Positions 497 through 35,204 of a stretch of DNA of 64,000 nt are shown one piece after another. The notes below the pieces were generated by a model. The model ran no database searches and was not told the origin of the DNA. It worked only from the letters and a program-made list of their open reading frames with translations. The DNA is from a virus. Taxonomy: Duplodnaviria > Caudoviricetes. The stretch is taken from positions 96,001 through 160,000 of IMG/VR virus record IMGVR_UViG_3300032219_002227; one strand, given 5' to 3'. Position 1 is the first letter of the stretch. The number at the start of each line of letters is the position of its first letter. Both the position numbers and the translations under genes were made by a program.

Positions 497-2089
497 ATGA
501 GTTTAGGAAAATATATAGCACAATTTTTATTAGAAGACGATTTCCTTGCCGAATACTCACAAAGTATCATCAATCAATTAGTTGATAAATTTAAGCAGGA
601 AAAACCTAATCTAGGAGTTGATACTATTAAAGCCTATATTAATCGCTTTAGCCAAATTAAAGATAGTCCTAGAGTAACTGAAAAAGATATTACTAAATAC
701 AATTGGAAGGATTTAGAAACTGTAGTTGATGCTAACCAACCAAAGCGTATCAAAGCAGGTAAAATAAATGATGGTGAACCTAGCAAAGATGCTAATTTAG
801 TTTATAATCAAAATGGATTAAGAATTTATGTTGGTAAAACTAAAAATGCCTGTGTTAAATATGGTAATGGTTATTCATTTTGTATTTCTGCTCGTGGTGA
901 GGATAATATGTATCATGACTATAGATATGGACAACAAGGAACACCATATTTTGTATTTGATGATACAAAATCATCTGAACAAGATGAAAATGGAAATTTT
1001 AAAGATATAACACATTTATTAGTAATATTTATCTACCCTGATCCAAATGGAGAAATGGTTGATGGTGGTAATATGTATTCAGACAATGGGATATTATATT
1101 ACACTGTAACAACAGCTGATAATCCGGGAGAAGATCAATATTCTTTCTTTAAAAATATAGAAGATAAATATCCTAGACTTAAAGGTTTAAAAAATGTATT
1201 TCAAGGTGCAGAAATAGACCCAAAAGAAAAAGCAGAATATGATCTTGATAGAAAATATGATGGTCTATTAGGCTATATTAATGAAAGTTACGGTAATATA
1301 AATGGTAAAAATTATCAAGAAGGATTTTGGGAAAAATATAGTTTTGATACTATTAAAGGAGCTAATACTAGAATTGATGATCTTATAAATGGTAAGATAG
1401 AAATATATCGTTTTGAAGGAGAACTTAAACCCGGAATAAAAGACGACGATTACATATCCACTTATGTAGCTCAAAGGAAATCAGGAAAAGATATAAAAGA
1501 ACTGTATAAAGAATTTACTGATAGTATAGTAATAATGTTATATAGGGGACCTGATACTAATCACAATATTATAGATGATTGGATTATAACATATGAAAAA
1601 ATAGACACTACAGAAACTCCAGGGTATAAAAAATACCTTAAAGATGTTAAACAATTAGTAGATAAATATAGAAATGATTTATCTAAACTAAGGTTAATGA
1701 AAGAAGGTTTAGAACGCAAAACCAAACTAAATGAAAGCGAAACAGCTACTATAGGTGAATTTGTAAAGTATGCGATTAAAAACTTGGAAATACAAAAACC
1801 CCCACGTAACTTAACCTTCTCATACGATAATGCGGCTGCTAAGGAGAAAAGGAGTTTTGGTTATTTTGATCCAAATGCTAATAAAATATGGGTTTATGTG
1901 AAGAATAGAAATATGGCTGATATATTAAGAACATTGGCTCATGAATTAGTTCATCATAAACAAAATTTAGATGGACGAATTGATTATAAAAGTGGAGAAA
2001 CTGGTTCTGATATTGAAAACGAAGCAAACGCTAAAGCAGGAATATTACTAAGAGATTTCGGGAAACAAAATAATGAAATATATCAATAA
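497..2089 (+). CDS. Putative head-internal protein: N-terminal 'CxxYG-x-[FW]CI' domain plus C-terminal zincin-like (HExxH) metallopeptidase domain
   Basis: NACVKYGNGYSFCIS motif shared with ORF 4957; LAHELVHHKQ...ENEANAKAG zincin motif; LLE/LAE/LNE sites flank the domains. Confidence 0.65.
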   Translation: MSLGKYIAQFLLEDDFLAEYSQSIINQLVDKFKQEKPNLGVDTIKAYINRFSQIKDSPRVTEKDITKYNWKDLETVVDANQPKRIKAGKINDGEPSKDANLVYNQNGLRIYVGKTKNACVKYGNGYSFCISARGEDNMYHDYRYGQQGTPYFVFDDTKSSEQDENGNFKDITHLLVIFIYPDPNGEMVDGGNMYSDNGILYYTVTTADNPGEDQYSFFKNIEDKYPRLKGLKNVFQGAEIDPKEKAEYDLDRKYDGLLGYINESYGNINGKNYQEGFWEKYSFDTIKGANTRIDDLINGKIEIYRFEGELKPGIKDDDYISTYVAQRKSGKDIKELYKEFTDSIVIMLYRGPDTNHNIIDDWIITYEKIDTTETPGYKKYLKDVKQLVDKYRNDLSKLRLMKEGLERKTKLNESETATIGEFVKYAIKNLEIQKPPRNLTFSYDNAAAKEKRSFGYFDPNANKIWVYVKNRNMADILRTLAHELVHHKQNLDGRIDYKSGETGSDIENEANAKAGILLRDFGKQNNEIYQ

Positions 2090-2092
2090 GTT

Positions 2093-2563
2093 ATGGATGC
2101 AATTTACTGCGATATGGATGGAGTCCTTGTCGATTTTAAAAAAGGTTATTACGATTTAACAAAGATAGATACTTCAAAATATGTTAAAGGTGATCACACT
2201 TTTTGGGCTCCGGTAGATAAAGAAGGCCCACAATGGTGGGCTAATTTAGATTGGATGCCTGATGGAAAAATATTATGGGATTATATTAAACCTTATAAAC
2301 CGCATATTTTATCATCTCCTTCAAAGAGTATATCTTCTAAAGTAGGTAAAGAGGCTTGGTGTAAAATCAATATCAACAACCAATATAAAAACTTATTATT
2401 ATACCCACGCCATGAAAAACAATTATTTTCAGGCAAATTCAGTATATTAATTGATGATTTAGAAGAAACTATTAAAGAATGGAATAAGCATGGAGGAATA
2501 GGTATCCACCATACTTCTGCTATTGATACAATTAAGCAACTTAAAGAATTAGGTTATGAGTGA
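2093..2563 (+). CDS. HAD-superfamily 5'(3')-deoxyribonucleotidase-like phosphatase
   Basis: DMDGVLVDF (motif I), ILSSP, ILIDD...I..W...GG.GI typical of phage NT5C-like proteins. Confidence 0.85.
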   Translation: MDAIYCDMDGVLVDFKKGYYDLTKIDTSKYVKGDHTFWAPVDKEGPQWWANLDWMPDGKILWDYIKPYKPHILSSPSKSISSKVGKEAWCKININNQYKNLLLYPRHEKQLFSGKFSILIDDLEETIKEWNKHGGIGIHHTSAIDTIKQLKELGYE

Positions 2564-3140
2564 TAATATGTTAAAGCGTGAATTTCGTGAACGTGACGTT
2601 CAACGTATGCGAAATATTATTACTAAGGATTATACTGCTAAAACAACAACGCAAGTTGGTTATTCTAAGGCCCAAATAGACCACAAAGAAGGTGATATAT
2701 GGGAGGAGAATGATAAACAATGGACTATTAAAAACGGTATTAAACAAACAGTTACGCGCTTAGATAAATTAAAACAAACATTAAACTTACCACTGACATG
2801 CCCTAAATGTGGTAAAGCAATGAAGAACCATAACTTAAATAAAAAGATGTGGTCTATTCATAAAATGTGCTTTGATTGTGTAATTACAATAGAAACTGAA
2901 TTAAAACGCACAGGACAGTACGAAGAATATGCACGCAGTTTAACAACACGCGGTGTTAAAGCATATATTAAAGATTTAGAAGATGTTGTATTAGAATTAG
3001 CTTTAGAAGATACTAATGAAGGATTTATTACTGAACAAGGCGATATTGAAAAATGGGCTGGTAAAGGATTAGACACTAAAAAACTAACCGAAGAAATACA
3101 GGAATATATACAGAAACTTAAAGATCACATTAGTGATTAA
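2556..3140 (+). CDS. Hypothetical protein with CxxC...CxxC zinc finger
   Basis: TCPKCG and MCFDC; overlaps the upstream stop. Confidence 0.7.
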   Translation: MSDNMLKREFRERDVQRMRNIITKDYTAKTTTQVGYSKAQIDHKEGDIWEENDKQWTIKNGIKQTVTRLDKLKQTLNLPLTCPKCGKAMKNHNLNKKMWSIHKMCFDCVITIETELKRTGQYEEYARSLTTRGVKAYIKDLEDVVLELALEDTNEGFITEQGDIEKWAGKGLDTKKLTEEIQEYIQKLKDHISD

Positions 3141-3181
3141 TATTTATAGGCAATGATTTACTAATTAAGTCAACCCTATAG

Positions 3182-3469
3182 ATGGAAAATAATATTTGGA
3201 CAGCCCTTATTACAGCTATAACAGTTTTGGGCGGAACTACAGCATTTAGATATTACGAAAGAAGAGCAATGCATCGTGAAAGAGATGAAGATTTTATTCG
3301 TCATGATTGTAAAGATCGCATATCAAAACTAGAAGCTCTATTAGAAGAATCATCAAAAGAAAAAGACGAAATGCGCCAGTTAATCCTTAAATTAACTGAG
3401 CAAGTTGCTGAGTTGAAAGTTAAGGTTGAATATCTTACTAGTGAAAATAACAAATTAAAAAAAGGATAA
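3182..3469 (+). CDS. Membrane protein, N-terminal TM helix plus coiled coil (possible lysis accessory)
   Basis: IWTALITAITVLGGTTAF hydrophobic segment, then heptad-rich C-terminus. Confidence 0.6.
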   Translation: MENNIWTALITAITVLGGTTAFRYYERRAMHRERDEDFIRHDCKDRISKLEALLEESSKEKDEMRQLILKLTEQVAELKVKVEYLTSENNKLKKG

Positions 3470-3702
3470 TGTATAGTCTACTTGAACTACTTAAGCTCCA
3501 AGAAGGTCCTATAGAATACCCAGATGATCATGAACCTGGTATGCGTGTAACTAAAGGTGGTTCTATGTGTGCTAACTGTGAGTATCATGAAGCTGAAGAT
3601 AATTTATGTAATAACAAATATTGGCTGAAATGGCATGATGGTGATGCCAAAATCCCAGCTCCAGCAGATGAATATTGTTGTAATTGGTGGCATGCAAAAT
3701 AA
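3469..3702 (+). CDS. Small Cys-rich protein with HiPIP-like Cys pattern; tagged putative internal protein
   Basis: MYSLLELLKLQE leader; CANCEY...C...I....YCCNWW. Confidence 0.55.
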   Translation: MYSLLELLKLQEGPIEYPDDHEPGMRVTKGGSMCANCEYHEAEDNLCNNKYWLKWHDGDAKIPAPADEYCCNWWHAK

Positions 3703-3708
3703 TATATT

Positions 3709-4218
3709 ATGATTAAATTATTAGATATACTACATGAAAATATTATAGGTGGTGAAATTGAATGTGAAAAGTGTGGACATACATGGGAATTAGCAGACGG
3801 AGGAGACAATCCATATATTTGTCATAATAAAACATCAGGAGAAGAATGTGGATATGATAATAGTGGACAAATAGAAGAGTACGATGTTGAAAATAAACAA
3901 GATTTAAGAGAATTTATCGAGTTTATGGAGTCATATCAAGATGAGCTTAATGAAGCTGATTGTGATTGTCTGTTAGAAGCTAAATATCAAGGTCGTACAG
4001 TACCGTTAGGTAAACCAATGCGTGGTGATAGTAAGAAATTTAAAGTATATGTTAAAAATCCTAAAACAGGTAAAGTTGTAAAAGTAAACTTTGGTGCTAA
4101 GGGAATGAATATTAAGAAAAATAATCCTAAACGCCGTAAAGCATTTAGAGCAAGACATAACTGCGATAATCCAGGACCACGTACTAAAGCAAGATACTGG
4201 TCATGTAGAAAATGGTAA
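3709..4218 (+). CDS. Putative internal protein: MIKLLDILHE tag, Zn ribbon, basic C-terminal domain (VNFG...RRKAFRARHNC...YWSC)
   Basis: CEKC...CH...C ribbon; the basic C-terminal domain is a type recurrent in large phages and giant viruses. Confidence 0.7.
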   Translation: MIKLLDILHENIIGGEIECEKCGHTWELADGGDNPYICHNKTSGEECGYDNSGQIEEYDVENKQDLREFIEFMESYQDELNEADCDCLLEAKYQGRTVPLGKPMRGDSKKFKVYVKNPKTGKVVKVNFGAKGMNIKKNNPKRRKAFRARHNCDNPGPRTKARYWSCRKW

Positions 4219-4232
4219 TATGATGTAAAAAA

Positions 4233-4550
4233 ATGATTAAACTAACTGACATACTAAAAGAAGTAAAAGAAACATTTGAAAATTTTGCTACTACTCGTGG
4301 TAAAGGTGCTGCTAAAATTGCAGCTACTGCTGAAAAGAAAGGTGGATTATCTTTATTAACATGGCATCATTTTAAAGTTAAGGCTCCATATTATAAAAAA
4401 GCTACTGAGGGTAAATTTGATAAAGAAGCTGCTAAAAAAGAGTTTGAAAAAACACTAAAAAGCATATCATTAAACATGACTCAAATAGAATTTCAACGTG
4501 AAGTTGGTCGTTTAGAGGTATTGGGTGAATTACTAATAAGAGACAAATGA
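4233..4550 (+). CDS. Putative internal protein, MIKLTDILKE tag
   Basis: First 11 aa identical to the next ORF; body unrelated. Confidence 0.7.
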   Translation: MIKLTDILKEVKETFENFATTRGKGAAKIAATAEKKGGLSLLTWHHFKVKAPYYKKATEGKFDKEAAKKEFEKTLKSISLNMTQIEFQREVGRLEVLGELLIRDK

Positions 4551-4957
4551 TTAAATTAACAGACATATTAAAAGAAGTATTAGAAGAAAAGAAAAAGAAA
4601 AAAGATCGATGTGCTCGTATTGCTAATCGCAAATACGATAAGCCATCCGCTTATAAATCAGGAGCTATTGTACGTTGTCGTAAAGGTAATATTTGGAAAG
4701 GATTAAAAGAGGAAATCGATCAATTAGACGAGAAAAAAAAAGAAACTCTTCATACCTGGTTTAAACGTAAAGGTGCACCTGGTAAAACAGGGGGTTGGGT
4801 TGATTGTAATACATGCCGTGAAGTAGACGGTAAAAAAAAATGTAAGCCTTGTGGCCGTAAAAAAGGTGAAACACGTACAAAATATCCTTCATGCCGTCCA
4901 ACACCTTCACAATGTTCAGATCCAGGTAAGGGTAAAAAATGGGGAAAAACTAAGTAA
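4547..4957 (+). CDS. Putative internal protein, MIKLTDILKE tag, very basic Cys-rich domains (DUF5872-like)
   Basis: DRC...PSAYKSGAIVRCRK and LHTWF...GGWVDC...KPCGR...KYPSCRP motifs. Confidence 0.7.
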   Translation: MIKLTDILKEVLEEKKKKKDRCARIANRKYDKPSAYKSGAIVRCRKGNIWKGLKEEIDQLDEKKKETLHTWFKRKGAPGKTGGWVDCNTCREVDGKKKCKPCGRKKGETRTKYPSCRPTPSQCSDPGKGKKWGKTK

Positions 4958-7896
4958 TGAAAAATATAGATAGATTTATATTACACGTTGTACAAAATTT
5001 ATTTCCTTTAAGTGAATATAAGGAAGGAGCATTTAATCAAATTTTAGCACATTATAAAGAAGAAGCTGAGGATAATAATATTAATATTACCGAGCCTCAA
5101 TTAAAAAAATATATTGAACTTTTTGATAAGAACAAGAAAAAGTTCATGGATAAAATAGGAACTGATCTAATAAAACCAGGACCTGGTGGTAAACTTGAAA
5201 TAGTAGTTCCTTTATCTACATTAATGAAATTAGCATCTGGTCTTTCTGGAAGTAATATCGAAGACGAAGAAGATCGAACCCTAGATGTAGTATTTCCTAA
5301 ACAAGGAGATCCTACTCCTCAAGAAGGAGAACCAGGATATAGAATGATAGTATATAATGGCAGTAAAGAAGGTAACTGTATTAGATACGGTCAAGGTGAA
5401 AAATGGTGTATAACTAGAGGTTCATATGGTAGTTATCGTTATAGAGCTGATAAAGGATACCCTACATTTTATCTAGCAAAAAATGATAACTTACCTGAAA
5501 CAGACAAAAATAGTTTTGTTGCTATCCAAGTTAGAGGTGAACGTGATGAAAGTAATAGATATGTTTATACAGATAGAAGTAATTCTCCTTATGAGTCTTC
5601 TGAAATGTCTTTTGAAGATCTAACTAGTCGAGTTCCATGGTTAAGAGATATTCCTAATTTAAAGAGTATTTTAAAATACATTCCTTTATCTTCTCAAGAA
5701 AAAAATACCCAAATATATAAAGATAAACCTGCAAGTATTAGAGACTGGATATACTTTCCAGATCTTAATACTAAACAACAATACTTAGTAGTAAGAGCAG
5801 GTAAACAAAAATTTAATGATATAAGTGATGAAAGATTTGTAAGAGATTATTTACCTGATTATCCGGATCTGGCTAGATTTTTAGCTATAACTCCAAATAT
5901 TATTAATACTGAGCTTTTATTACAATATCTAGATAAATTACCTCGTAATGATCAATCATCAGTTGTAGCTAATCTTAGAAGTAAAGTTTCTCCCAGATCA
6001 TTACCTTCAGCTGATTTATCTTTTACAGCAAAAAAATTAATAACATACAAAGATAAATGGAATCTAAGTCCAGACCAAAAAATATATGTTACAAAAGATG
6101 GTCAGTCTATTATTTTATTAACATTAGGAGATAATATTAAAATAGACCGATACACTGAAGAAAAGGATTTTCCTAATATTAAATTAAATCAACGTACATC
6201 AAAATATCTACTTGATTATCCTAATTTAGATGAAATTCCTTTAAAAAATTTAATTAAATTAGCTGAAGATGAAGTTGTTGATAAAGAATTTATTAATCGT
6301 ATATTAAATAAAGCTAAAGAAGATCCTAACTCATCTCTTATAGTTAAGTCAGTAGATGATGGTGAAATTATATTAGACTCAAATTCATTTTCTTCATATA
6401 AAGTAGGATCAGATGGTAAAATAACATCAGTACCATTTGATAATGAAGAAGTACAACAAGCTATTACTGATGTTGCTGATAATGAGACTTTTAAAGAAAA
6501 AGCTTTAAATTTATTTAAAACTAGAAATTATATTCCGACTACTGTAGATAAAAAAGGATTGTTTAATGTTATTAATTCACTTTCTTATAATGACAGAGAA
6601 TTTCAAATTGAAGGTGAAAACCCAGTAGTATTATTAACTTCTACTAGTGAAGAAATTCCTTTCTTTACTATAACTACTTCTCCTGCTAGATTTATCAGTG
6701 ATCCTAGTCCTCAAACAGTATATAACAACGCAGGAGAAACACGTGGTGGTTATAGTTTTTCTATTAATAATGAAGCAGCATCATCTTATTTTGATTATTT
6801 AAGACGAGGAAATAAATCATTTAATGATCTTGAATTAACACGTTTTTTAGGTAATAAAAATATTAGTATTGGAGCTAAAAAAACATTTATAAGAAACAAT
6901 CCTCCTACTGGTGAAAATAATGCCTTTAGAGCTATTATAAGTAATGATAGAGGTAGTGAAGAAATTTTTCTTATTGATACTAGAACGCCTAGTGATAGTT
7001 TTGTGTTATCTTCTGCTAGAAATAATTTAAAAGGTATAAATATACCTGCATCAAAAGCAAGACAAATGTTAGGTCAAGCAGCACCTGCTACTTTAGCGGC
7101 AGCTGCTGATGATCAAACTCGTAGAAGAGGTAGACCAGCAGGCCAAACAAATACTCCTCGTCCTGAACAACCAGTTGCTGTAGATGCAGGCGGCGGTGGT
7201 GGAGATATAGATGTAGCAGCTAGAATGGGAGAAGTTGGATTAGGTACTGCATTTATGCGATTACCTACATCTGATCGTAGAAGATTAATGGTGACAGATG
7301 GTGTACGTGTTAATCCTAATAACCATAATGGTAGTACTCGTCGTAATAATGTATTAGCTGGTGCTGGTAGAGTAGGACAAACAATTAAAATAGGTGATAG
7401 CTTTATTTATATTATTAGATTAACTAATCAACAGATAGTAGCATTTATCAATGTTCAACCAGTAAATAATAACTACCTATTAACAAGTAATGAAAATGGT
7501 AATGTAGTTGTTCCACTTAGTTCTCCAAGACTTCTATTACAAGCATTACAACAACGTAACTTAGCAGAAGTTCACCAATATATAGTAAATGAATATCTTG
7601 GAACATATCCAGAACATTTAAGTGAATTTAAAGAATTATTACGTAAACATATAAACGAAAAAAAGAAACAAGAAATGAACAAGAATAAATTAAAAGAAGC
7701 AATTCGTCAATTAGTAGACAAAGTGTTAACTGAAGAAATGACTAACAGTACATCAATGTCCACTGCACGAAAAATTGAAAACGACATTGAATCAGGTAAA
7801 TTAGACCCAGCTGAAGTAAAAGCCGCTGCTGAAAAAGCTGAAAAAGGCGATTCTACAGATCTAGCTATGTTAATGTTTACATACCTACAAAAATAA
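4957..7896 (+). CDS. 979-aa putative internal protein: 'CxxYG-x-WCI' domain, AT-hook, C-terminal tagged helical module
   Basis: NCIRYGQGEKWCITR paralogous to ORF 497; RRRGRP AT-hook; LKEAIRQLVDKVLTEE near the C-terminus. Confidence 0.65.
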   Translation: MKNIDRFILHVVQNLFPLSEYKEGAFNQILAHYKEEAEDNNINITEPQLKKYIELFDKNKKKFMDKIGTDLIKPGPGGKLEIVVPLSTLMKLASGLSGSNIEDEEDRTLDVVFPKQGDPTPQEGEPGYRMIVYNGSKEGNCIRYGQGEKWCITRGSYGSYRYRADKGYPTFYLAKNDNLPETDKNSFVAIQVRGERDESNRYVYTDRSNSPYESSEMSFEDLTSRVPWLRDIPNLKSILKYIPLSSQEKNTQIYKDKPASIRDWIYFPDLNTKQQYLVVRAGKQKFNDISDERFVRDYLPDYPDLARFLAITPNIINTELLLQYLDKLPRNDQSSVVANLRSKVSPRSLPSADLSFTAKKLITYKDKWNLSPDQKIYVTKDGQSIILLTLGDNIKIDRYTEEKDFPNIKLNQRTSKYLLDYPNLDEIPLKNLIKLAEDEVVDKEFINRILNKAKEDPNSSLIVKSVDDGEIILDSNSFSSYKVGSDGKITSVPFDNEEVQQAITDVADNETFKEKALNLFKTRNYIPTTVDKKGLFNVINSLSYNDREFQIEGENPVVLLTSTSEEIPFFTITTSPARFISDPSPQTVYNNAGETRGGYSFSINNEAASSYFDYLRRGNKSFNDLELTRFLGNKNISIGAKKTFIRNNPPTGENNAFRAIISNDRGSEEIFLIDTRTPSDSFVLSSARNNLKGINIPASKARQMLGQAAPATLAAAADDQTRRRGRPAGQTNTPRPEQPVAVDAGGGGGDIDVAARMGEVGLGTAFMRLPTSDRRRLMVTDGVRVNPNNHNGSTRRNNVLAGAGRVGQTIKIGDSFIYIIRLTNQQIVAFINVQPVNNNYLLTSNENGNVVVPLSSPRLLLQALQQRNLAEVHQYIVNEYLGTYPEHLSEFKELLRKHINEKKKQEMNKNKLKEAIRQLVDKVLTEEMTNSTSMSTARKIENDIESGKLDPAEVKAAAEKAEKGDSTDLAMLMFTYLQK

Positions 7897-7961: not shown

Positions 7962-8459
7962 ATGAATATCAACGAAGTACGCAGCATTATCCGCCAAGTA
8001 ATTGCTGAAGCAATTGAAGAAAAAAAAGGCGCACCTAAAAGTAATTTTAAGTTAGTAGAACTTAAAAAAGAAATGGAAAATTTAAGGAAAATGAAAGAAT
8101 CTTTAGGTCAATTTCAAATTTCTGAAGGCGGTGAACAACAATTTGTAGCTGAATATGCTCATATGCAAAAATTTGTTACTGAATATAATAAAATTAAAGA
8201 AGCTCACGCTCGTTTATCTGAAATGTTAGATAATCAAATTAGTGCTGTAGATACTAGAATCAAAACCGAAACTGACAAGATTAAGGAAATGATGGGTCTT
8301 ATCGAAAAAGCTAAAAAACCAACTGAAAAGAAGGAAAAGAAAGCTGACAAAGATACTTCTAAAAGTAAGCATGAAAAAGGTGAATCTGAGGAAGAAGAAG
8401 AAGAACATGATGAAGAGCCTAAACCAAAGAAAAAACCAGCCGTTAAAAAAGATAAATAA
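7962..8459 (+). CDS. Coiled-coil, charged putative head-core/internal protein
   Basis: VRSIIRQVIAE N-tag; KIKEMMGLIE; K/E-rich tail; ATATTTAT upstream. Confidence 0.65.
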   Translation: MNINEVRSIIRQVIAEAIEEKKGAPKSNFKLVELKKEMENLRKMKESLGQFQISEGGEQQFVAEYAHMQKFVTEYNKIKEAHARLSEMLDNQISAVDTRIKTETDKIKEMMGLIEKAKKPTEKKEKKADKDTSKSKHEKGESEEEEEEHDEEPKPKKKPAVKKDK

Positions 8460-8461: not shown

Positions 8462-8848
8462 ATGGATAACGCTTTAATAGGACAATTTATATCAACATTA
8501 ATGTCTGCCCGTACTCAGGCACACATTTTTCATCTACAAACTCCATCATTTGCTGCTCATAAAGCATTAAATGAATTTTATGAAGATATTGTAGATATGA
8601 TTGATACTTTAGTTGAATCTTATCAAGGTAAATACGGTATTGTTGAAGGATATGGTAACGTGTCTTTACAAGAGTATCAAAGCTGTGATGGTATTATAGC
8701 TTATTTTGCTACATTAGTAATGTTCATTGAAAAGAGTAGAAGTATGATCGCTCAAGACTCATACATTCAAAACCAAGTAGATGAACTCGTTGCTTTAATA
8801 TATTCTTTACTCTATAAATTACGTTTCTTAAGTGATAAAGCTAATTGA
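8462..8848 (+). CDS. Ferritin/Dps-like four-helix-bundle protein (DUF5856-type)
   Basis: HIFHLQT.SFAAHKALNEFYE...D.LVESYQGKYG...QNQVDE...YKLRFL. Confidence 0.8.
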   Translation: MDNALIGQFISTLMSARTQAHIFHLQTPSFAAHKALNEFYEDIVDMIDTLVESYQGKYGIVEGYGNVSLQEYQSCDGIIAYFATLVMFIEKSRSMIAQDSYIQNQVDELVALIYSLLYKLRFLSDKAN

Positions 8849-9581
8849 TTTAATTAATGAAGAAAAAATGACTCCTGCTCAAAAGAAAAAGCGCGGAGAA
8901 ATTTATGACAAGCTAACAGCAGACGGAATGTCTTCTAAAAAAGCAGGACCAATTGCTACATCAAAAGCTATGTCTGAAAAGAAAGGTATAGATAGAGATA
9001 AGGACGGTGATATAGATAGTGAGGATTGGAAAATAGGAAGGGATATTGCTATTAAAGCAAAATCTAAAAAAGTAAATGAAGAAAATATTCCAGCCCCATT
9101 AGCTTCTCTTTATGACTTAGTTGAAAAATTAATAGCACAAGATATTACTAAAGATGAAATATTACGAATAGTAAATTTTGCTACTGCTAAGTTAAATGAA
9201 GGATCAGACCATGAAGTATCAATGGCGGTATCTAGTTTAGAAGCAATTGCAAAAGCAATTATAGAATTAAGACAAAAACTAGGTAATGTAGAACGTAATA
9301 TTCCAGGCTGGATTCAAGATCACGTTGCTAAAGCAGAAAATTATATTGAACAAGCAGCTCAAGGATTTCATGAACTAAAAGATGATAAAATGAACGAAAC
9401 TAAAAGAATGCAACAATTAGCAGGTATGTTAAATGAAAATGATCAACCTGGTATCTATTTTGATATTGAACAAGATTTAATGCACGGTGAATTTGAAAGT
9501 ATTGATGATCAAGTTAACTATCTTCAAGATGTTATTAATTTCTGCAATGATAAAATAGCTGAATTACAAGCTAATGGATAA
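8832..9581 (+). CDS. Multi-module putative internal protein (GTG start)
   Basis: MIKLIDLINE tag; EF-hand-like DRDKDGDIDSED; DHEVSMA...IPGWIQDHVAKA module; RMQQLAGMLNE. Confidence 0.65.
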   Translation: MIKLIDLINEEKMTPAQKKKRGEIYDKLTADGMSSKKAGPIATSKAMSEKKGIDRDKDGDIDSEDWKIGRDIAIKAKSKKVNEENIPAPLASLYDLVEKLIAQDITKDEILRIVNFATAKLNEGSDHEVSMAVSSLEAIAKAIIELRQKLGNVERNIPGWIQDHVAKAENYIEQAAQGFHELKDDKMNETKRMQQLAGMLNENDQPGIYFDIEQDLMHGEFESIDDQVNYLQDVINFCNDKIAELQANG

Positions 9582-10104
9582 AAAATTAATACTAGAAAAA
9601 TACATTAAAGTAGCAGTACGTAAAGCACTTGCTGAACAAGAAGCAATGGAAAAACGTGCTACTAAATCTATGTATTTAATATATCGTTTTCCTGGTCTAA
9701 AAAAGGTTGTAGAAGAATTAATGTCTCCTGCTTTTGGTCGTTATATTACTGAAGTAGATATTGTTGCTCCTAAACCAACAACATTTAATATTAAATTAAT
9801 TAACGAACAAGAATTTACAGTTGTATATGATGGTAGAAAAAATTACACTGCTAAAGTAGCAGGTAAAAGATATAATGTACAATTACTAAGTGAATTAGAA
9901 AGAGCATCTCAAGCGATAGCAGACTTATTAGAATTAAATTATGCTATTGAAGAAAAAGGAGCTCCTGAACCTGACGCCGGAGCTGAAGCATTTACAGCAG
10001 CTAATGCTCCAGAAGCAAACTCACCAGCAGGAGGAGAAACACCACCAGCCGAAGAACCAGCTCCTGAAATACCAGATGAAGAAACTCCACTCGCTGGAGC
10101 TTAA
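9574..10104 (+). CDS. Putative internal protein with acidic Pro-rich tail
   Basis: LEKYIKVAVRKALAE N-tag; P/E/A-rich C-terminus. Confidence 0.65.
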   Translation: MDKKLILEKYIKVAVRKALAEQEAMEKRATKSMYLIYRFPGLKKVVEELMSPAFGRYITEVDIVAPKPTTFNIKLINEQEFTVVYDGRKNYTAKVAGKRYNVQLLSELERASQAIADLLELNYAIEEKGAPEPDAGAEAFTAANAPEANSPAGGETPPAEEPAPEIPDEETPLAGA

Positions 10105-10122: not shown

Positions 10123-10347
10123 ATGAAAGTACAACAGTATTTAAACGAAGTAAAAGCTACCCAAATAGCAGTAGGAAATCAATTTACTTTATCGGGAGAT
10201 ATAGGTAAATTTGTAAAAGGTGATAAAGTTGAAATAATAAAAGTAACACCTTTTGGGAATGATATAGAAATAAAACTAACTAATGAAGAAGGTACTACTG
10301 ATACCTTCTATTTAGATAAAAATGATGATTTTGAAGAATTAACTTAA
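10123..10347 (+). CDS. Small SH3-like protein with capsid-like N-terminus
   Basis: MKVQQYLNE resembles the capsid N-terminus MNVQQLLE; beta-rich body. Confidence 0.6.
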   Translation: MKVQQYLNEVKATQIAVGNQFTLSGDIGKFVKGDKVEIIKVTPFGNDIEIKLTNEEGTTDTFYLDKNDDFEELT

Positions 10348-25766: not shown

Positions 25767-26275
25767 TGGATATTAAAGAATATATCAAACAGCTTGTTCG
25801 TGAATTGCTAGACGAAGAAACTACATCTGGCGATGCTGGTCCTTATTCTACTCCATTAGCCTTTGCTAAAAAAGGACAAGGTCCAAATGCAGCAACTAAA
25901 CAAGCACAAAGATCAGGTTGGAAGTTAGCTAAAAAACCAACTACATCTGATATAGTTGATTATAAAAAAATATTTCAAGAAGTGAAACTAAATACATTAA
26001 TTAAGCAAGAATTACTTAACGAAGTAACTTATTCTAAGTTTAAGAACGACGTAAAACATAGAACTAAATCTGAACAATTACATAAAGCTATTCGTGAAGT
26101 AAAACGTAAGCTTCAAGAAATTGATCGTATCGTAGAATATACTTCTCGTATGAAACAGGAATTAAGTTTAGATGAAGGTGGTGTTTCTTATTGGAAAACT
26201 ACTGAATCTAATATTGGAAAAATTTCTGAAATGATGAATCATTTAAATAACAAAATTAAAAACTTGCATCAATAA
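25766..26275 (+). CDS. Probable prohead core/internal protein
   Basis: IKEYIKQLVRELLDEE tag; TSGDAGPYSTPLAF motif; LLNE site. Confidence 0.6.
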   Translation: MDIKEYIKQLVRELLDEETTSGDAGPYSTPLAFAKKGQGPNAATKQAQRSGWKLAKKPTTSDIVDYKKIFQEVKLNTLIKQELLNEVTYSKFKNDVKHRTKSEQLHKAIREVKRKLQEIDRIVEYTSRMKQELSLDEGGVSYWKTTESNIGKISEMMNHLNNKIKNLHQ

Positions 26276-26405: not shown

Positions 26406-27938
26406 ATGAAAAGTATAGCAAACCAATATCGTGATTTGAAAGAAGGCAAAATGTCACAATTTAATTTTATGCGTAATTTACGTATGACTATGCCTCAATA
26501 TATTACTAATGTAACTTCATTTAAAGATGCTGTTAAAATTCTTAAAAATAAGTCTATTTTAAATGAAGCTGACGTTGCAGAAATGCGTTATCAATCCTCA
26601 GGCGGAGTAGATAATCCAGGAAGAGAAGATCAATCTAATTATGACATGGATAGTTTTATTAGAGAGCTGGATAGAGAACTAGAATACTATGAAAGAGAAT
26701 ATCCGGGTCTTGTAGCTTTTGTTGATAAATTAGGTAATAATGATGAAACAAATCCTAAATATCTCGATATTACAGATAGATACTTTGACGACCCAGCAGG
26801 CGCTGCTGCTGAATTTATTACCTTATTTAATAAACAAAACATTAATGAATTAGGCCCTGACGCAGAGAGAATGGCTGGTAACCCTGAAGAAGAGGCAGAA
26901 TATAGAGCAACTGCTATTAGAAAAAAAAGTAATGATGATGAAGATGATGAATTAGATGCTATTATTAAACAAATGGAAGATGAATTAGATAGTCCTGACA
27001 AATATAAAAATCAAGACTCTGAAGATGCATTAGGTGAGGATTTAAAAACTGTTAAAGAACCAAATCCAAATGCTGGTAAATGGAGATTGATGAGTATTGA
27101 TGGAAAAAGGGCATTAGCTAATAATTTTTTTGATTCTGAAAAAGATGCAAAAGAATACGCTAGAAAAAATATAAGAACAGATTATAAAACCGTAAAATTA
27201 AAGGATGAAAGATCTGTATACAGAAATATAGATGAAAGTAGAAAGAAAAAAGAACCAAAAAAAGAATTACATCCAAATCAAATTCATCCACAAGAATTAA
27301 GGATGGGTATTAAGGTTGAATTAGAACATACCGCTGATTTAGATAAAGCAAGAAAAATTGCTTTAGATCATTTAGCTGAAAATCCATTCTACTATACAGC
27401 TTTAAAATTAGCAGGTATTGAATCACCCTCAGCTCCTAAAGTTAAAGCACCTGTAGAGAAAAAGGCTAAAAAGAAAAAAGAAACAGCTGAATTAGTCGAT
27501 AAGGATAACCAAATGCAGAAGGTAAAAATGCCTAAAATTGTTAAAGAAGTTAGGTATAATACTTTAAAAGAACCAAGTCCTTTTATGAAAGAAGTTGAAG
27601 ACTTTATTGATAATACTCTTGGTTTAAATGTTATGTCTAAAAAACTAGAATTACAAGATACTCAAGATCCAAATAGAGTACTTTTAAGATATCAATACTG
27701 GGAAAAACTTCCTAAAGAAGCTCTTGATATTTTTAAAAACTCAGATAAGTTTAAAGTTGAAGAAGATATAGATGTAGAAGAAGAAAAAGCAGATTCATAT
27801 CTTTACTTTATAGAACCTAAATCTTCTTTATCTGAAAATCATTCTCGTCTTATGGCTAAATTAGAAGCATTAGTACGTGAAGCTATTAATGAATATTATG
27901 ATGGGCGTGATAATTTAGATGCCGAAAACGAATACTAA
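26406..27938 (+). CDS. Multi-module head-internal protein with a DUF5661-like domain
   Basis: ELRMGIKVELEH...KIALDHLAENPFYYT; modules separated by LNE/INE/IDE/VKE/LSE; C-terminal LEALVREAINE. Confidence 0.65.
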   Translation: MKSIANQYRDLKEGKMSQFNFMRNLRMTMPQYITNVTSFKDAVKILKNKSILNEADVAEMRYQSSGGVDNPGREDQSNYDMDSFIRELDRELEYYEREYPGLVAFVDKLGNNDETNPKYLDITDRYFDDPAGAAAEFITLFNKQNINELGPDAERMAGNPEEEAEYRATAIRKKSNDDEDDELDAIIKQMEDELDSPDKYKNQDSEDALGEDLKTVKEPNPNAGKWRLMSIDGKRALANNFFDSEKDAKEYARKNIRTDYKTVKLKDERSVYRNIDESRKKKEPKKELHPNQIHPQELRMGIKVELEHTADLDKARKIALDHLAENPFYYTALKLAGIESPSAPKVKAPVEKKAKKKKETAELVDKDNQMQKVKMPKIVKEVRYNTLKEPSPFMKEVEDFIDNTLGLNVMSKKLELQDTQDPNRVLLRYQYWEKLPKEALDIFKNSDKFKVEEDIDVEEEKADSYLYFIEPKSSLSENHSRLMAKLEALVREAINEYYDGRDNLDAENEY

Positions 27939-27939
27939 T

Positions 27940-28548
27940 ATGAAATTATTACTGATTGACCATACCCCATTTCAGCAAGCAAACCTTACCTTATTAGAAG
28001 GTAAAGGTAATAAAGATGGTTTAGTTACTCTTGTAGGTAAACTGCAAGCAGCTAACCAAGAAAATGGTAATAATCGTAAATATCCTTATAAAACTCTTAA
28101 GCGTGAAGTAGATAAATATATAGATGGTCCTATCAAAACACGTACTGCTTTAGGAGAATTAGATCATCCTGAAGCATCTGTTGTAAATTTAGCAAATACT
28201 TCTCACATTGTTACTAGTGTTTGGTGGGATGGAAATAATGTTATGGGTAAAATTCAATTATTACCTACACCTGCTGGCAACATTGCTAAAGCATTAGTAA
28301 TGGCTGGTATTCCACTTGGAATATCTTCACGCGGTATGGGTAGTGTTAAACAAATTGGAGAGGCAGTTGAAGTACAAGAAGATTTTGAATTATTATGTTG
28401 GGATCTAGTATCGGTACCATCAACACCAATGGCATACATGCAATTAGCTGAATCAAAGAAATTTAGACCCACAAAAGATTATAGTAAAGTAAATAGTTTA
28501 GTAACTGAAATTATTTGTAACCAAACAGGAGTTTGTCCTATTTGTTAA
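27940..28548 (+). CDS. Prohead core protease (T4 gp21-like)
   Basis: NGNNRKYP, GELDHP, GISSRGMGS, DLVSVPST; ATG 27940 preferred over 27919 because it avoids the overlap. Confidence 0.93.
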   Translation: MKLLLIDHTPFQQANLTLLEGKGNKDGLVTLVGKLQAANQENGNNRKYPYKTLKREVDKYIDGPIKTRTALGELDHPEASVVNLANTSHIVTSVWWDGNNVMGKIQLLPTPAGNIAKALVMAGIPLGISSRGMGSVKQIGEAVEVQEDFELLCWDLVSVPSTPMAYMQLAESKKFRPTKDYSKVNSLVTEIICNQTGVCPIC

Positions 28549-28668: not shown

Positions 28669-28695
28669 CTCAATTAAATTTAAGGAGAACAATTT

Positions 28696-29793
28696 ATGTC
28701 AAACAAAGACTTATTCAAAGAGGCTATCGCCGACGCTAAAGCTGTCCGCGAAGCTGCGTTAGCAAACGCAAAAGCTGCTCTTGAAGAAGCTTTAGCTCCA
28801 GCAATTCAAAATATGATTTCTAGTAAATTACAAGAAATTGATGAAGATTTGGATGAAGTTGAAGATCTTGAAGAAGTAGATTTTATCTCAGCTAATGACA
28901 AAAGGAATGATTCTGATTTTATCAGAAAAAGAGCTATTGATGCAAGCCAAATGTCAGAAGGCGAAGAAGACCTAGAAGAAGATTTCGATTTATCTGAAAT
29001 TTTAGCTGAATTAAGTGAAGAAAATGAACTTGAAGAAGCTAAAGATAAGGATGAAAAGAAAGAAAATCTCTACGAAGATGAAGATGAAGAATCTGAATTA
29101 GAAACTGTAGGTGATTTAACCGTTGATGAATTTAAAGATGAAATCAGAGACATGATCAAAGATATTATCTCATCAGAAATGGGTGGTGGCGAAATGGCTG
29201 CTGCTGATGATGTAGTAGATGATGCTGAAGAAATGGCTGTTGATTTTAGCGATGAAACCGGCGGTGATGACTTACGTCAAGACACAGATGATGCTATAGC
29301 AAATGCTGAAGAAGATGACGAAGAAATCAACTTAGAAGAATTACTAGCTGAACTTGATTCTTTAGACGAAGCTAATGATACTGATGAAGTATATGAAGCT
29401 AAGAAAAAGAAAAAAACACCACAAGGCGAAGATAAAGAAGAAGAGATAAAAGAAGCTCTTAACACTATCAATACCCTTCGCACTGAACTTAACGAAGTAA
29501 ACTTGCTTAATGCTAAGTTACTTTATGTTAACAAAATTTTCAAGTCTAAGAACTTGAATGAATCACAAAAACTCAAAGTAATTGCTCAATTCGACAAAGC
29601 AACTACTGCGAAAGAAGCTAAAGTTATTTATGAATCTATGAGTAGTGCTATTGCAAAATCTGCTAAAAGCACAATCAAAGAATCATTAGGATTTGCTTCA
29701 AAAGCTGCTGGTATGGCTCCACAAAAACCAATTGTAGAAGTAAATGATACAGTTGCTAGATGGAAAATGTTAGCAGGTATTACTAAATTTTAA
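28696..29793 (+). CDS. Prohead scaffold protein (T4 gp22-like)
   Basis: LFKEAIADAKAVRE, very acidic centre with many LxE sites, LNEVNLLNAKLLY, C-terminal RWKMLAGI; immediately upstream of the capsid gene. Confidence 0.88.
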   Translation: MSNKDLFKEAIADAKAVREAALANAKAALEEALAPAIQNMISSKLQEIDEDLDEVEDLEEVDFISANDKRNDSDFIRKRAIDASQMSEGEEDLEEDFDLSEILAELSEENELEEAKDKDEKKENLYEDEDEESELETVGDLTVDEFKDEIRDMIKDIISSEMGGGEMAAADDVVDDAEEMAVDFSDETGGDDLRQDTDDAIANAEEDDEEINLEELLAELDSLDEANDTDEVYEAKKKKKTPQGEDKEEEIKEALNTINTLRTELNEVNLLNAKLLYVNKIFKSKNLNESQKLKVIAQFDKATTAKEAKVIYESMSSAIAKSAKSTIKESLGFASKAAGMAPQKPIVEVNDTVARWKMLAGITKF

Positions 29794-29824: not shown

Positions 29825-31429
29825 ATGAACGTACAACAACTCCTCGAATCATCTAACCAATATAAAGTGGTGATGGATGACGCTAAAAAGTTGTCAAACA
29901 AGTGGGCTAAATCTGGCCTTTTAGAAGGTATTAGATCTACTAATGACAAAAATACAATGGCTATTTTGCTTGAAAACCAAGCTAAGCAATTAGTAACCGA
30001 AGCTAACGTAACTGGCGGTACTAATAGTATGAATGGTGCTGGATACAATGCTGAGAACTGGGCTGGCGTAGCTTTGCCTTTAGTTCGCCGCGTATTTGGT
30101 GAAATCGCAGCTAAAGAATTCGTTAGTGTACAACCAATGAACTTACCTTCTGGTCTTGTATTCTATCTTGATTTCAAGTATGCTAATAACATCAGACCTT
30201 TCCGTTCTGGTGATTCACTTTACAGTGCTAATAACAGCACTAACGTAACTGATTTTGCTAACACCGCTTCTCTTTATGGTGCTGGTCGCTTCGGTTACTC
30301 TATCAATCAGTATACAGCTTCTGTTACTAATGCTTCTACAGGATCTGCTCAATGGTCTGATTTTAATCTTGATTCTAACTACTCTGCTTCTGCAGCTTCT
30401 AGTCAGTACAAGAAAATTTCTGTTCCATTACCTTCTAACTACGACGTAAACGCGGTTCGTGGATTTGTAATTGTTTCTGGTACAATTGCTGCTACTGATG
30501 TATTGCAAGCTTTCACTACTGTAACTAACAACACTGCTTCTTTCATTGTTACTGGTTCTTTAGTAGCTAGAGACATGTCTCCCGCCGCTGCTACTGTAAC
30601 ATTGTTCTACGATATCCAGAACACTCCTGAAAGTCGTGGTGATTTCGAAGATGGTAAAGCTAAAACAAATGCTCCTACCACTATCGATATTCCTTCTATT
30701 GACGTTCAGTTAAAATCTGAAGCTATCGTTGCTAAAACTCGTAAGTTGAAAGCACAATGGACTCCAGAATTCGCTCAAGATTTGAATGCTTATCATTCAA
30801 TCGACGCTGAAGCTGAATTAACTGGTATCCTTTCTCAATATATCTCTATGGAAATCGATCTCGAACTCCTTGATATGTTAATCCAAAACGCTTATACTGT
30901 TGATTATTGGACTGCTGTTAATAACAAGTCTATCACTTCTGCAGGTGTAACTTCTGATTTGGGTTACTACAACACTCAAGGTGGTTGGTTCCAAACTTTA
31001 GGTACTAAGTTACAGAAAGTTTCCAATATTATCCATCAGTTAACTTTACGTGGTGGCGCTAACTTCCTCGTAGTTTCTCCAACCGTAGCAACTGTATTAG
31101 AATCAATTCCAGGCTTTGCTACTGATGGTGATGGTGAGAAAATGGAATTCAACTTCGGTATCCAAAAGATTGGTCAGTTGAATAGCCGTTACAAAGTATA
31201 CAAGAACCCATACATGACTGAGAACGTAATTCTTATGGGTTACAAAGGTGCTCAGTTTCTTGAGTGTGGTGCTGTATTTGCTCCATATGTTCCATTGATC
31301 ATGACTCCACTTCTTTACGATCCTAATACCTTCACACCAAGAAAAGGTTTGATGACTAGGTACGCTAAGAAGATGATCCGTCCTGACTATTATGGTAAAG
31401 TATATGTTGCTGGTTTAAATACTCTTTAA
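29825..31429 (+). CDS. Major capsid protein (T4 gp23-like)
   Basis: LLENQ, LPLVRRV, VQPMNLPSGLVFYL, TRKLKAQWTPEFAQDL.AYH, FAPYVPL, FTPRKGLMTRY; probable maturation cut LVTE59|A. Confidence 0.97.
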   Translation: MNVQQLLESSNQYKVVMDDAKKLSNKWAKSGLLEGIRSTNDKNTMAILLENQAKQLVTEANVTGGTNSMNGAGYNAENWAGVALPLVRRVFGEIAAKEFVSVQPMNLPSGLVFYLDFKYANNIRPFRSGDSLYSANNSTNVTDFANTASLYGAGRFGYSINQYTASVTNASTGSAQWSDFNLDSNYSASAASSQYKKISVPLPSNYDVNAVRGFVIVSGTIAATDVLQAFTTVTNNTASFIVTGSLVARDMSPAAATVTLFYDIQNTPESRGDFEDGKAKTNAPTTIDIPSIDVQLKSEAIVAKTRKLKAQWTPEFAQDLNAYHSIDAEAELTGILSQYISMEIDLELLDMLIQNAYTVDYWTAVNNKSITSAGVTSDLGYYNTQGGWFQTLGTKLQKVSNIIHQLTLRGGANFLVVSPTVATVLESIPGFATDGDGEKMEFNFGIQKIGQLNSRYKVYKNPYMTENVILMGYKGAQFLECGAVFAPYVPLIMTPLLYDPNTFTPRKGLMTRYAKKMIRPDYYGKVYVAGLNTL

Positions 31430-31442
31430 TCCGATCCATATA

Positions 31443-31495: not shown

Positions 31496-31523
31496 ATATT
31501 TATATATAACCAAACAATTGTTC

Positions 31524-32192: not shown

Positions 32193-32225
32193 TTATATTT
32201 ATATGTGTTAAATACTACTTAAATA

Positions 32226-33848: not shown

Positions 33849-34459
33849 TGGGACAATTTAGAGGAGTACAACGATATATTAATTTAGGAGACTGTGCTCT
33901 AGCAGATTTCCCGGATAGTGCTCCGACTGCTTCAGCAACAAAACCAGGTGTTCCTTCTGCTCCTCCTGAACCACCACCTGGAAGTAAAGGTGAAGGTGGA
34001 GGGCCAAACAATTATATAGATCAAGCAGCACAAGCTGCAATCAACTATTCTAATATGAAAGTTGGTTATTTTAAAATCGATTTGTATAAGACTAAAGTAA
34101 ATATGTATGGTGAATCAATTGAAAAGTGGTACTATCTACCATTTGAAATTAAATGTATGATTGAAAGAGGTGATTTTGCCTATACAGACACTGAATATGG
34201 ACCTGATGTTAATCAAAGTATAAAAGTAATTATACCTAAATTAAATCTAATTGATTTAAATTTTACTCCTGAAGTAGGAGATATAATGACTGACCAAGAA
34301 AAATATTATGAAGTTCATACTGTAGATAGATCATTTATAACAATACCAGGAAGTGGCTATGCAGGTTCTTCTTTAGGAACTCCAGGTCAAGTAGTACTAT
34401 TTACATTGAATGCTCATCTAACAAGAACAACAAAACTTAACTTAATTCAATATAGCTAA
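33848..34459 (+). CDS. Neck protein (T4 gp14-like head closure) with Pro/Gly-rich N-terminal region
   Basis: VGYFKIDL..TKVNMYGES..K, PEVGDI....KYYEV; follows the gp13-like gene. Confidence 0.7.
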   Translation: MGQFRGVQRYINLGDCALADFPDSAPTASATKPGVPSAPPEPPPGSKGEGGGPNNYIDQAAQAAINYSNMKVGYFKIDLYKTKVNMYGESIEKWYYLPFEIKCMIERGDFAYTDTEYGPDVNQSIKVIIPKLNLIDLNFTPEVGDIMTDQEKYYEVHTVDRSFITIPGSGYAGSSLGTPGQVVLFTLNAHLTRTTKLNLIQYS

Positions 34460-34800
34460 TGGGATTATTAGGTAAAATATTATTAAACGAAGGAATCACA
34501 GTTTTTAGATGTGATGTACTTATTAAAACATCTGCTGAACAAAATAAGGTAGAGATTTACAATGAGATCAGAGCTCTAGAAGGAGTAGTTGTTGTAACTA
34601 TTCAGCAAAGTGATTTTTTAGATGCTAAAGCAACTGATAGATATGAATATTCTTTACTTAAAATAAAATATATTGGTAGAGGAGACGCTAAAGGTTCGAT
34701 TAAAGAAATTGGTATAGACGCTGTAACTAAAAATAAAATTTCTGGTTTATTACAGTTTATACCTCGTTATAATACTATTACTAAAGTTGGATCATACTAA
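34459..34800 (+). CDS. Small ACT/ferredoxin-fold-like protein with a tagged N-terminus
   Basis: LLGKILLNE; EIYNEIRALEGVVVV. Confidence 0.6.
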   Translation: MGLLGKILLNEGITVFRCDVLIKTSAEQNKVEIYNEIRALEGVVVVTIQQSDFLDAKATDRYEYSLLKIKYIGRGDAKGSIKEIGIDAVTKNKISGLLQFIPRYNTITKVGSY

Positions 34801-34805
34801 TTATT

Positions 34806-35204
34806 ATGAAATTATTAGACCTTTTAAAAGAATTAGACAAACCAAAGAATATTTATGTTCCTGGTGCCGAAGAAGATAATGTAGTGAGTTCTAGTGGTAA
34901 ACTTACAATAGCTGATTTAAGTCCTAAACAGCGTGATGAACTATTTAGTAAAGGATCTATTATGGTATCTGTTAAAGATCCTAGTCGTCCTGAAGTTACT
35001 AGTGCTTCTCAAGTAATTAATCTACCTAGAATTGATCAAATAAGAAAAGATGTAAATAAAAGTAAACAAGAATTTAATGTGTTTATGTATTCTTCAGATG
35101 AAAATCTAAAAAATGCAGCTAAACAAGTAAATAAAGCTCATAATGATTTGCTTAACGCAATGAATGTTCTTGATAAAATGCTTAATCTTAAAAGAAAAGA
35201 GTAA
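34806..35204 (+). CDS. Putative internal protein, MKLLDLLKE tag
   Basis: N-terminus matches the MIKLxDILxE family. Confidence 0.65.
   Translation: MKLLDLLKELDKPKNIYVPGAEEDNVVSSSGKLTIADLSPKQRDELFSKGSIMVSVKDPSRPEVTSASQVINLPRIDQIRKDVNKSKQEFNVFMYSSDENLKNAAKQVNKAHNDLLNAMNVLDKMLNLKRKE

Follow-up and report, generated by a model that had tools for sequence, protein, structure and literature searches.

Why should a series of otherwise unrelated phage proteins begin, and in some cases end, with one of a few short amphipathic peptides that close on a glutamate? The question is raised by a 64,000-nucleotide stretch of DNA (here called the window), bases 96,001-160,000 of the 173,246-bp phage genome recorded in IMG/VR as IMGVR_UViG_3300032219_002227, which has 31% G+C and carries nearly all of its genes on the same strand. 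A first-pass annotation of the window described these peptides as tags A, B and C ending in (L/I)-x-E, and proposed that they load proteins into the phage head, where a protease of the T4 gp21 type would release them; inspection of the open reading frame (ORF) translations found all of the listed motifs in place. The explanation favored here, with a probability of about 0.7, is that the tags are prohead anchors from which proteins can be released by the protease, in an expansion of the T4 capsid-targeting sequence (CTS) that partly copies the scaffold protein. For tags A and C the observation itself is real and far beyond chance. Judged by sequence, the robustly tagged proteins number about ten in the window and three elsewhere in the genome, with a handful of weak candidates; the earlier figure of about 20 cargo proteins was too high, given about ten robust cases in the window, six weak ones, and tag B-like helices that also occur by chance.

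The phage, uncultured and T4-like, has a major capsid protein of the T4 gp23 type, whose closest cultured relatives are those of Flavobacterium phage vB_FspM_immuto (hereafter immuto; 60% identity) and, next, Microcystis phage Mel-JY01 (50%). Proteins are named here by the window position at which their gene starts, and positions refer to the window unless given as genome positions. A search with the 4233 protein returned 376 IMG/VR relatives, of which 80 loci were read with flanks of up to 10 kb per side; the clade counts of tags refer to those 80 loci plus immuto. Family counts come from a stricter clustering, single linkage having chained 520 proteins together. The position matrix for each tag was built from related phages only and then scanned over the genome of the window phage. 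Across its proteome, 14 pairs of N-termini were similar at a score of at least 32, against 2-3 pairs for internal or C-terminal controls.

The sharpest of the tags is tag A, a 10-residue peptide with the consensus M-I-K-L-x-D-[I/L]-L-x-E. It begins five proteins of the genome, four of them in the window (3709, 4233, 4547, and 8832) and one at genome position 4514, and it has no internal copies: the five accepted N-termini score 27-34 bits, while the top score among approximately 50,000 internal positions is 6.9. In the clade loci, strict tag A heads 135 proteins, which their remaining sequence sorts into 46 families, and a looser pattern gives 257 N-terminal matches versus 18 elsewhere, a more than 200-fold N-terminal enrichment; those 18 are mostly gene fusions or ORFs called with too early a start. 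The expansion is uneven across related genomes, with 0-3 strict copies per complete genome and five in the window phage. The tag A genes of the window are as follows, with tag ends here and in the later feature lines derived by hand from residue numbers.

3709..3738, plus strand: tag A on a 169-residue protein (ORF 3709-4218) whose C-terminal part matches phrog_7595; matrix score 27.3
4233..4262, plus strand: tag A on a 105-residue protein (ORF 4233-4550), the most conserved tagged protein, with its 376 IMG/VR relatives
4547..4576, plus strand: tag A on a basic 136-residue DUF5872 protein (ORF 4547-4957)
8832..8861, plus strand: tag A, with a GTG start, on a 249-residue fusion protein (ORF 8832-9581)
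34806..34832, plus strand: short tag A, one residue fewer, on a 132-residue protein of the neck/head-completion module (ORF 34806-35204)

The same tag is found at the same position as that of the 34806 protein in the head-module locus of a relative (L101). The AlphaFold 2 model of the 4233 protein places the tag in a helix of its own (residues 4-10), set off from a helical body by a break (11-14), and this break after the Glu is consistent with an exposed cut site. Foldseek found no significant PDB match for the model, and a tblastn search of cultured phages with the 4233 and 4547 proteins found immuto only.

What is conserved in tag A is the peptide rather than the DNA, as the first-pass annotation had suggested from the tags of 4233 and 4547, which share 11 identical residues with three synonymous differences in 33 nucleotides. 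In 115 tag A genes, Leu4, Ile/Leu7, Leu8, and Glu10 are invariant, positions 5 and 9 accept a wide range of residues, and no conservation is seen in the 18 bases upstream. The conserved positions are nonetheless written with different synonymous codons: Leu4 with five, Ile2 and Leu8 with three each, and Lys3, Asp6, and Glu10 with two each. This synonymous variation, together with the variable positions 5 and 9 and the unconserved upstream DNA, shows selection on the peptide.

Part of the evidence that ties the tags to the head comes from tag C, with the consensus R-M-Q-x-L-A-G-I followed by [L/I]-x-E. Its matrix scores 35-40 at three places, namely at 11176, at genome position 64185, and inside the 8832 protein (residues 191-202), and everything else in the genome scores below 3. 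A scaffold search returned 100 relatives, and 74 of them, down to 28% identity, end in R-[M/W/F]-Q-x-L-A-G-I-(K)-K; the scaffold of Mel-JY01 has the same conserved extreme C-terminus. In sequence, the conserved extreme C-terminus of the scaffold is thus the core of tag C. The same peptide is also used as a C-terminal anchor, since at least 10 non-scaffold proteins, the 19680 protein among them, end in a scaffold-type peptide with [L/I/V]-x-E upstream.

28696..29793, plus strand: acidic gp22-like scaffold, assigned by position, acidic coiled-coil composition and the 100 relatives from the scaffold search
29731..29790, plus strand: C-terminus of the scaffold, with an I-V-E site and then the anchor R-W-K-M-L-A-G-I-T-K-F
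11176..11232, plus strand: tag C (19 codons, ending L-K-E) on a 130-residue WYL_2/Sm-like protein (ORF 11176-11568; PF10902); score 35.4
9402..9437, plus strand: internal tag C with L-N-E at the fusion joint, spanning residues 191-202 of the 8832 protein; matrix score 38.6
20577..20627, plus strand: L-D-E site, then the scaffold-type anchor R-M-Q-Y-Y-A-G-I-K-K and the C-terminus of the 19680 protein

A putative cleavage site accompanies the anchor at both protein ends. From the comparison set, 38 distinct N-terminal tag C sequences are known, and [L/I/V/M]-x-E lies within 6 residues after the tag in 34 of 37 distinct cases. Likewise, among the unique C-terminal anchor sequences, from scaffolds as well as other proteins, 49 of 61 have [L/I/V/M]-x-E within the 16 preceding residues, against a random-segment background of 28%. 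The 19680 protein is marked at both ends, with tag B at its N-terminus and the anchor preceded by L-D-E at its C-terminus, and shows no detectable homology to the scaffold itself. When the capsid protein (34-row alignment) and the tag C segment (35-row alignment) were modeled as a complex, without controls, the score was 0.00, a result that bears neither way.

Two further tags are of the types M-K-K-S-E-L-K-x-L-I-R-E (tag B) and F-D-L-K-K-F-L-V-E-N (tag D). In the clade loci, tags B, C, and D each have approximately 25 N-terminal occurrences in 18-20 families, with a roughly 30-fold N-terminal enrichment. The matrix scan found no tag D in the genome of the window phage; it is seen in immuto, at genes starting at 1803, 103806, 117631, and 118632, and in others. 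Further candidate tagged genes of immuto start at 24569, 25061, 102294, 102880, 111184, 111675, 112261, 113188, and 123355. Tag B scores 10-18 at its accepted sites (19680, 25766, 7962, and genome position 82076), and the head-module homologues of the 25766 protein in relatives retain the tag B N-terminus.

19680..19739, plus strand: tag B on a 316-residue protein (ORF 19680-20630); score 17.6
25766..25816, plus strand: tag B on a 169-residue protein encoded between portal and protease, where T4 has gp67/gp68; score 14.8
7962..8009, plus strand: tag B-type amphipathic N-terminus ending I-A-E on a 165-residue protein, right behind a promoter motif; score 9.7, moderate
9574..9636, plus strand: tag B-type N-terminus ending L-A-E on a 176-residue protein, from a family of 47 with varied amphipathic N-termini
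7675..7734, plus strand: internal tag B that includes a Met of its own, at residues 907-926 of a 979-residue protein (ORF 4957-7896); score 15.5

The resemblance of tag B to the N-terminal helix of the scaffold is at most suggestive: the scaffold N-terminus ranks 16th of 234 for likeness to the tag B seeds, and 3% of internal control segments score as high. The start of the terminase large subunit (21371-21420) is also a tag B-like amphipathic helix, and is kept in immuto. An identity of the tags as Sec or lipoprotein signal peptides was considered and rejected, the tags being amphipathic with a conserved Asp/Glu instead of having a hydrophobic core of at least 10 residues behind a basic N-terminus, and the true signal peptides of these phages clustering separately.

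How the four tags relate to each other can be seen from the proteins behind them. Homologous mature domains start right after the Glu of differing tags in one family with tags A and D, two with A and B, and one with A and C. The WYL_2 family (11176) carries tag C in the window phage and tag B in other phages, the 10123 family has a short tag in the window phage and a full tag C in a homologue, and homologues of the 4547 protein have a B-type start, among them the immuto orthologue, which aligns only from residue 20. A domain of approximately 65 residues in the 8832 protein (about residues 120-186) occurs behind all four tags in relatives. Because one mature domain can stand behind A, B, C, or D in different phages, the tags would be interchangeable rather than distinct addresses, and the swapping is as expected of functionally equivalent, detachable pro-sequences. 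The combinatorial address code of the first-pass annotation is not supported by these comparisons. It is doubtful that each tag class binds a different prohead component (the N-terminal bundle of the scaffold, the inner capsid surface via the scaffold-end peptide, or a portal-proximal core) as a true address code for copy number, position, and ejection order. If such a code did exist, the set of proteins injected by thousands of uncultured aquatic phages could be read from sequence, and natural, orthogonal, protease-releasable loading tags would be at hand.

Tags are also found at the joints of fused ORFs, which bears out the earlier reading of 4957 and 8832 as multi-domain proteins. In relatives, the large 4957-type protein stops just before residue 907, and locus L011 has a separate 82-residue ORF that begins with that very tag B; since the two are separate there, the window phage has fused a small tagged gene onto the 4957 ORF. 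Residues 1-190 of the 8832 protein match free-standing tag A proteins of 146-160 residues in relatives, and the part behind the joint corresponds to a segment of a separate protein whose N-terminus is tag C-like, with Asn replacing the Gly of the motif. Relatives additionally fuse an NMNAT-like domain (G-G-F-K-P-P-H-x-G-H), the C-terminal domain of the 497 type, and, last, a HAD nucleotidase behind a 497-like tag, in proteins of 660-844 residues. As an anatomical description of the predicted ORFs, the polyprotein idea is supported.

L006:6712, L007:6300, L019:4028, and L036:1165 (loci of relatives): tagged NMNAT-like/HAD fusions

A protease able to act on such sites is predicted within the head module, in agreement with the gp21 homologue already noticed in the first reading.

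21371-22951: terminase, in the head module
22983-24875: T4-type portal (PF07230)
Starts 24912, 25766, and 26406: three conserved head-module proteins between portal and protease
27919..28548, plus strand: prohead protease, Peptidase_S77 of the T4 gp21 type (PF03420, E 5.9e-33)
29825-31429, plus strand: major capsid protein
29825..30001, plus strand: propeptide predicted for the major capsid protein, covering residues 1-59 and ending V-T-E

Aligned with gp21 of phage RB27, the S77 protease has invariant His (G-E-L-D-H-P) and Ser (S-S-R-G) motifs, and a second [L/I]-x-E site, approximately 20 residues into the protease, is kept. The T4-type cleavage site of gp23 aligns with V-T-E at residues 57-59 of the capsid protein; across 34 homologues, Glu59 does not vary. 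Tag A matches both the T4 CTS (sequence from PMC8442874) and the gp24 propeptide (from phage RB27) in its length of 10, its hydrophobic residues at positions 4, 7, and 8, its acidic residue at position 6, and its Glu10. In the T4 CTS, positions 4 and 7 matter in the targeting of IPIII, and positions 8 and 10 in processing (PMC9026906); tag A has the hydrophobic residues at 4 and 7, a comparison that is inapplicable to tags B-D. In relatives, small tagged ORFs are inserted among the genes for portal, protease, scaffold, and capsid, in the region that in T4 encodes the core proteins gp67 and gp68.

The tagged genes are also linked by the way in which they seem to be transcribed. The motif A-T-A-T-T-T-A-T-[A/T] has 49 copies on the coding strand versus 5 on the other, mostly 12-45 nucleotides before start codons, and is found ahead of every structural operon (window span 465-63588). 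It is probably the late-type promoter of the phage. One copy heads a unit with four tagged genes.

3140..3148, plus strand: promoter motif A-T-A-T-T-T-A-T-A heading unit 3182-7896

Further copies at 465, 7927, and 18965 precede the remaining tagged units, and outside the window the motif directly precedes the tagged genes at genome positions 64185 and 82076. Motif-headed units contain 12 of the 13 core tagged genes versus 138 of all 233 genes (Fisher p 0.017).

That the tags load proteins into the head is most likely, because one tag copies the end of the scaffold and because a site of the head-protease type separates the tag from its protein. According to the proposed mechanism, a late-made protein would carry an N-terminal helix (A, B, or C; D in relatives) or a C-terminal scaffold-type peptide, and this anchor would bind a component of the scaffold core or of the inner shell, so that the closing capsid shell traps the protein inside. 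Cleavage by the S77 (gp21-type) protease, after the Glu of the (L/I/V)-x-E lying between anchor and payload, would then set the payload free within the head, and the small peptide left of the anchor would exit. Tag A would be the counterpart of the 10-residue T4 CTS, for which, to our knowledge, no binding partner has been identified. Tag C and the C-terminal anchors would be copies of the C-terminal peptide of the scaffold, whose carriers may enter by imitating it. Anchor swapping and the fusion of payloads into short polyproteins would both follow from the cut site dividing anchor from payload. The steps that we infer from sequence are binding, cleavage, packaging, and host delivery.

Several points weigh against this explanation. 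The search of the literature found no virion proteome for the window phage, immuto, or Mel-JY01. At the N-terminus of the protease itself (27919-27990), the first conserved L-I-x site has Asp, versus Glu in T4 and several relatives. The predicted mature tagged proteins have a median isoelectric point of 6.5, versus 5.9 for other proteins (p 0.59), which is no different and runs counter to the expectation of basic internal proteins as in T4. Some relatives of the payloads are enzymes of a housekeeping type (HAD nucleotidase, NMNAT-like), with no obvious role inside a capsid. Tag B scores comparable to those of accepted sites are found at the N-terminus of the terminase (13.1) and in an internal segment of a tail protein (14.4); since chance-level internal matches and the terminase score equally high, tag B is a looser class, and its type of helix is by itself non-diagnostic. 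Finally, the promoter motif is also found ahead of some non-structural units, so the late timing of the motif-headed units can only be presumed. Regarding tag specificity, the first-pass claim stands for tags A and C, which are set apart by the gap in their matrix scores; tag B is real but loose, with chance matches that score alike, and the six weak variants discussed below are not significant singly.

Among known systems, the closest is the T4 CTS of IPI, IPII, IPIII, and Alt, which is removed by gp21 (Mullaney & Black 1996; PMC9026906, PMC3012670, PMC8442874). Both consist of a 10-residue N-terminal peptide on unrelated proteins, with cleavage after (L/I)-x-E by an S77 protease and a conserved tag on diverse, fast-changing payload genes. 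However, T4 has one tag, whereas here there are at least four interchangeable classes on dozens of families in a large clade of aquatic phages. Unlike in T4, one class copies the C-terminus of the scaffold, C-terminal anchors occur, and tagged genes fuse into short polyproteins; moreover, the payloads share no homology with the T4 internal proteins, are not generally basic, and are known here from sequence alone. The giant phages phiKZ, 201phi2-1, and SPN3US (PMC5694885, PMC7411985, PMC10052503) likewise have propeptides that are cut after Glu by a gp21-related protease, and a large load of internal proteins. Their propeptides are long, family-specific, and defined by proteomics, in contrast to the tags described here, which are short, swappable, and common to unrelated families. 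In P22, the C-terminal helix-turn-helix of the scaffold binds coat protein as the handle for the shell and, in engineered fusions to foreign cargo, loads it into the capsid (bioRxiv 10.1101/2022.12.13.520362; PMC9962691); tag C and the C-terminal anchors seem to be a natural counterpart of such loading. The sequences and folds are unrelated to those found here, where the handle has approximately 10 residues, can stand at either end of the protein, and is paired with a protease site, and where capsid binding is presumed. Encapsulins also use short terminal cargo-loading peptides to bring unrelated cargo into a shell of the HK97 fold, although this happens without protease release, scaffold, or DNA. 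We know of no sequence relation between the encapsulin peptides and these tags. In the literature on the term "capsid targeting sequence" and on the motif strings, no description of this tag variant was found.

The alternative that survives best accepts entry into the prohead and differs in what follows: the tagged proteins would be accessory core or scaffold components like T4 gp67 and gp68, to be degraded and expelled instead of being delivered as payload. Several tagged genes do lie at the gp67/gp68 position, in the interval between portal and protease, the 19680 protein mimics both ends of the scaffold, and the predicted mature proteins are non-basic. Nevertheless, dozens of unrelated and rapidly exchanged families, including WYL_2, metallopeptidase-like, nucleotidase, and NMNAT-like proteins, would make unlikely scaffolds, and most tagged proteins have a single terminal site, not many internal ones, which makes this alternative rather unlikely.

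A second alternative dispenses with the head, regarding the tags as docking or leader peptides for some other machine, such as a modifying enzyme, a multi-enzyme complex, or a degradation system, and their link with the head as a coincidence. Nucleotide-metabolism enzymes among the tagged relatives would fit such a role, and so would the tag B-like helices on non-head proteins, for instance the terminase. It is made improbable by the tag C core, which is the C-terminal peptide of the scaffold itself, by the cut-site motif between anchor and payload at both protein ends, and by the tagged ORFs within head modules; in addition, the annotated stretches that were inspected show no conserved partner enzyme beside the tagged genes, except head genes. 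The third alternative, that the shared starts are features of the DNA (recombination linkers for cassette exchange, or translation-initiation signals), could call on the position of the tags at the borders of swapped cassettes and on the discussion of the conserved CTS as a shuffling point in the internal-protein loci of T-even phages (PMC3012670), but is largely refuted by the codon variation, free positions, and unconserved upstream DNA described for tag A, and by four unrelated tag sequences that have only a peptide logic in common.

If the tags work as releasable prohead anchors, the head-carried and probably injected proteins of abundant freshwater and marine phages could be listed from sequence, opening to study a large and fast-evolving pool of likely host-takeover and anti-defense proteins. 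The match between tag C and the end of the scaffold offers a concrete mechanism, open to testing, by which a capsid-targeting peptide could locate the prohead, and the tags could provide short, self-removing natural handles for putting foreign proteins into T4-like capsids. Direct tests are made practical by the cultured relative immuto, which grows on Flavobacterium sp. LMO8.

Besides the robust cases, six N-termini had been listed as tag variants (497, 3469, 10123, 11568, 19444, and 34459), none of which rises singly above the background in the matrix scan. They are given here together with a candidate propeptide in the head module.

497..535, plus strand: weak variant ending L-L-E on a 530-residue protein with a metallopeptidase-like C-terminal domain (weak match)
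3469..3504, plus strand: weak variant on a 77-residue protein; score 3.4, within noise
10123..10149, plus strand: weak short tag ending L-N-E on a 74-residue protein
11568..11597, plus strand: weak variant ending L-N-E on a 316-residue protein; score 2.0, within noise
19444..19470, plus strand: weak variant on a 79-residue protein; comparison with relatives gave no support
34459..34491, plus strand: weak variant ending L-N-E on a 113-residue protein, its position and sequence conserved in relatives
26406..26444, plus strand: candidate 13-residue propeptide ending L-K-E on a conserved 510-residue head-module protein (DUF5661), with [L/I/V]-x-E-G in most homologues

Comparison with relatives adds to some of these cases. 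The N-terminus of the 497 type recurs on their NMNAT-like multidomain proteins, one homologue of the 3469 protein has, in the corresponding position, a clear N-terminus of the tag A type, and the immuto orthologue of the 11568 protein likewise has [I/L]-x-E just ahead of the conserved body. Pfam and PHROG searches of the payloads returned only DUF5872, DUF5661, WYL_2, the weak metallopeptidase-like match, and phrog_7595. Outside the window, two tiny acidic proteins with tag A-like starts are encoded at genome positions 65909 and 74114 among small early-type genes, each with the promoter motif directly upstream.

The neighboring enzymes, namely a PolB-type exonuclease, DenV, an FAD oxidoreductase, AAA/MoxR-like proteins, and PhoH, are untagged, and the first-pass annotation of these neighbors as untagged enzymes was right. 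The HAD 5'-nucleotidase (2093-2563) calls for a qualification: it is free-standing and untagged in the window phage, but the free-standing nucleotidases of relatives are often tagged. Because its homologues there are either tagged or fused to tagged proteins, this gene would belong elsewhere to the tagged set. Conserved genes without tags are also found within the tagged transcription units, encoding a DUF5856 protein (8462-8848) and a DUF6884 protein (18977-19444).

Two arrangements around the scaffold gene were seen in relatives. In one locus (L103:5878-8637), a single ORF of 920 codons covers both the scaffold and the major capsid protein, the latter 75% identical to that of the window phage, which would be either a natural fusion or the result of a stop codon lost by assembly error. 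In Mel-JY01 (L166:10149-10376), a gene annotated as ribosomal protein S21 lies between the prohead protease and scaffold genes.

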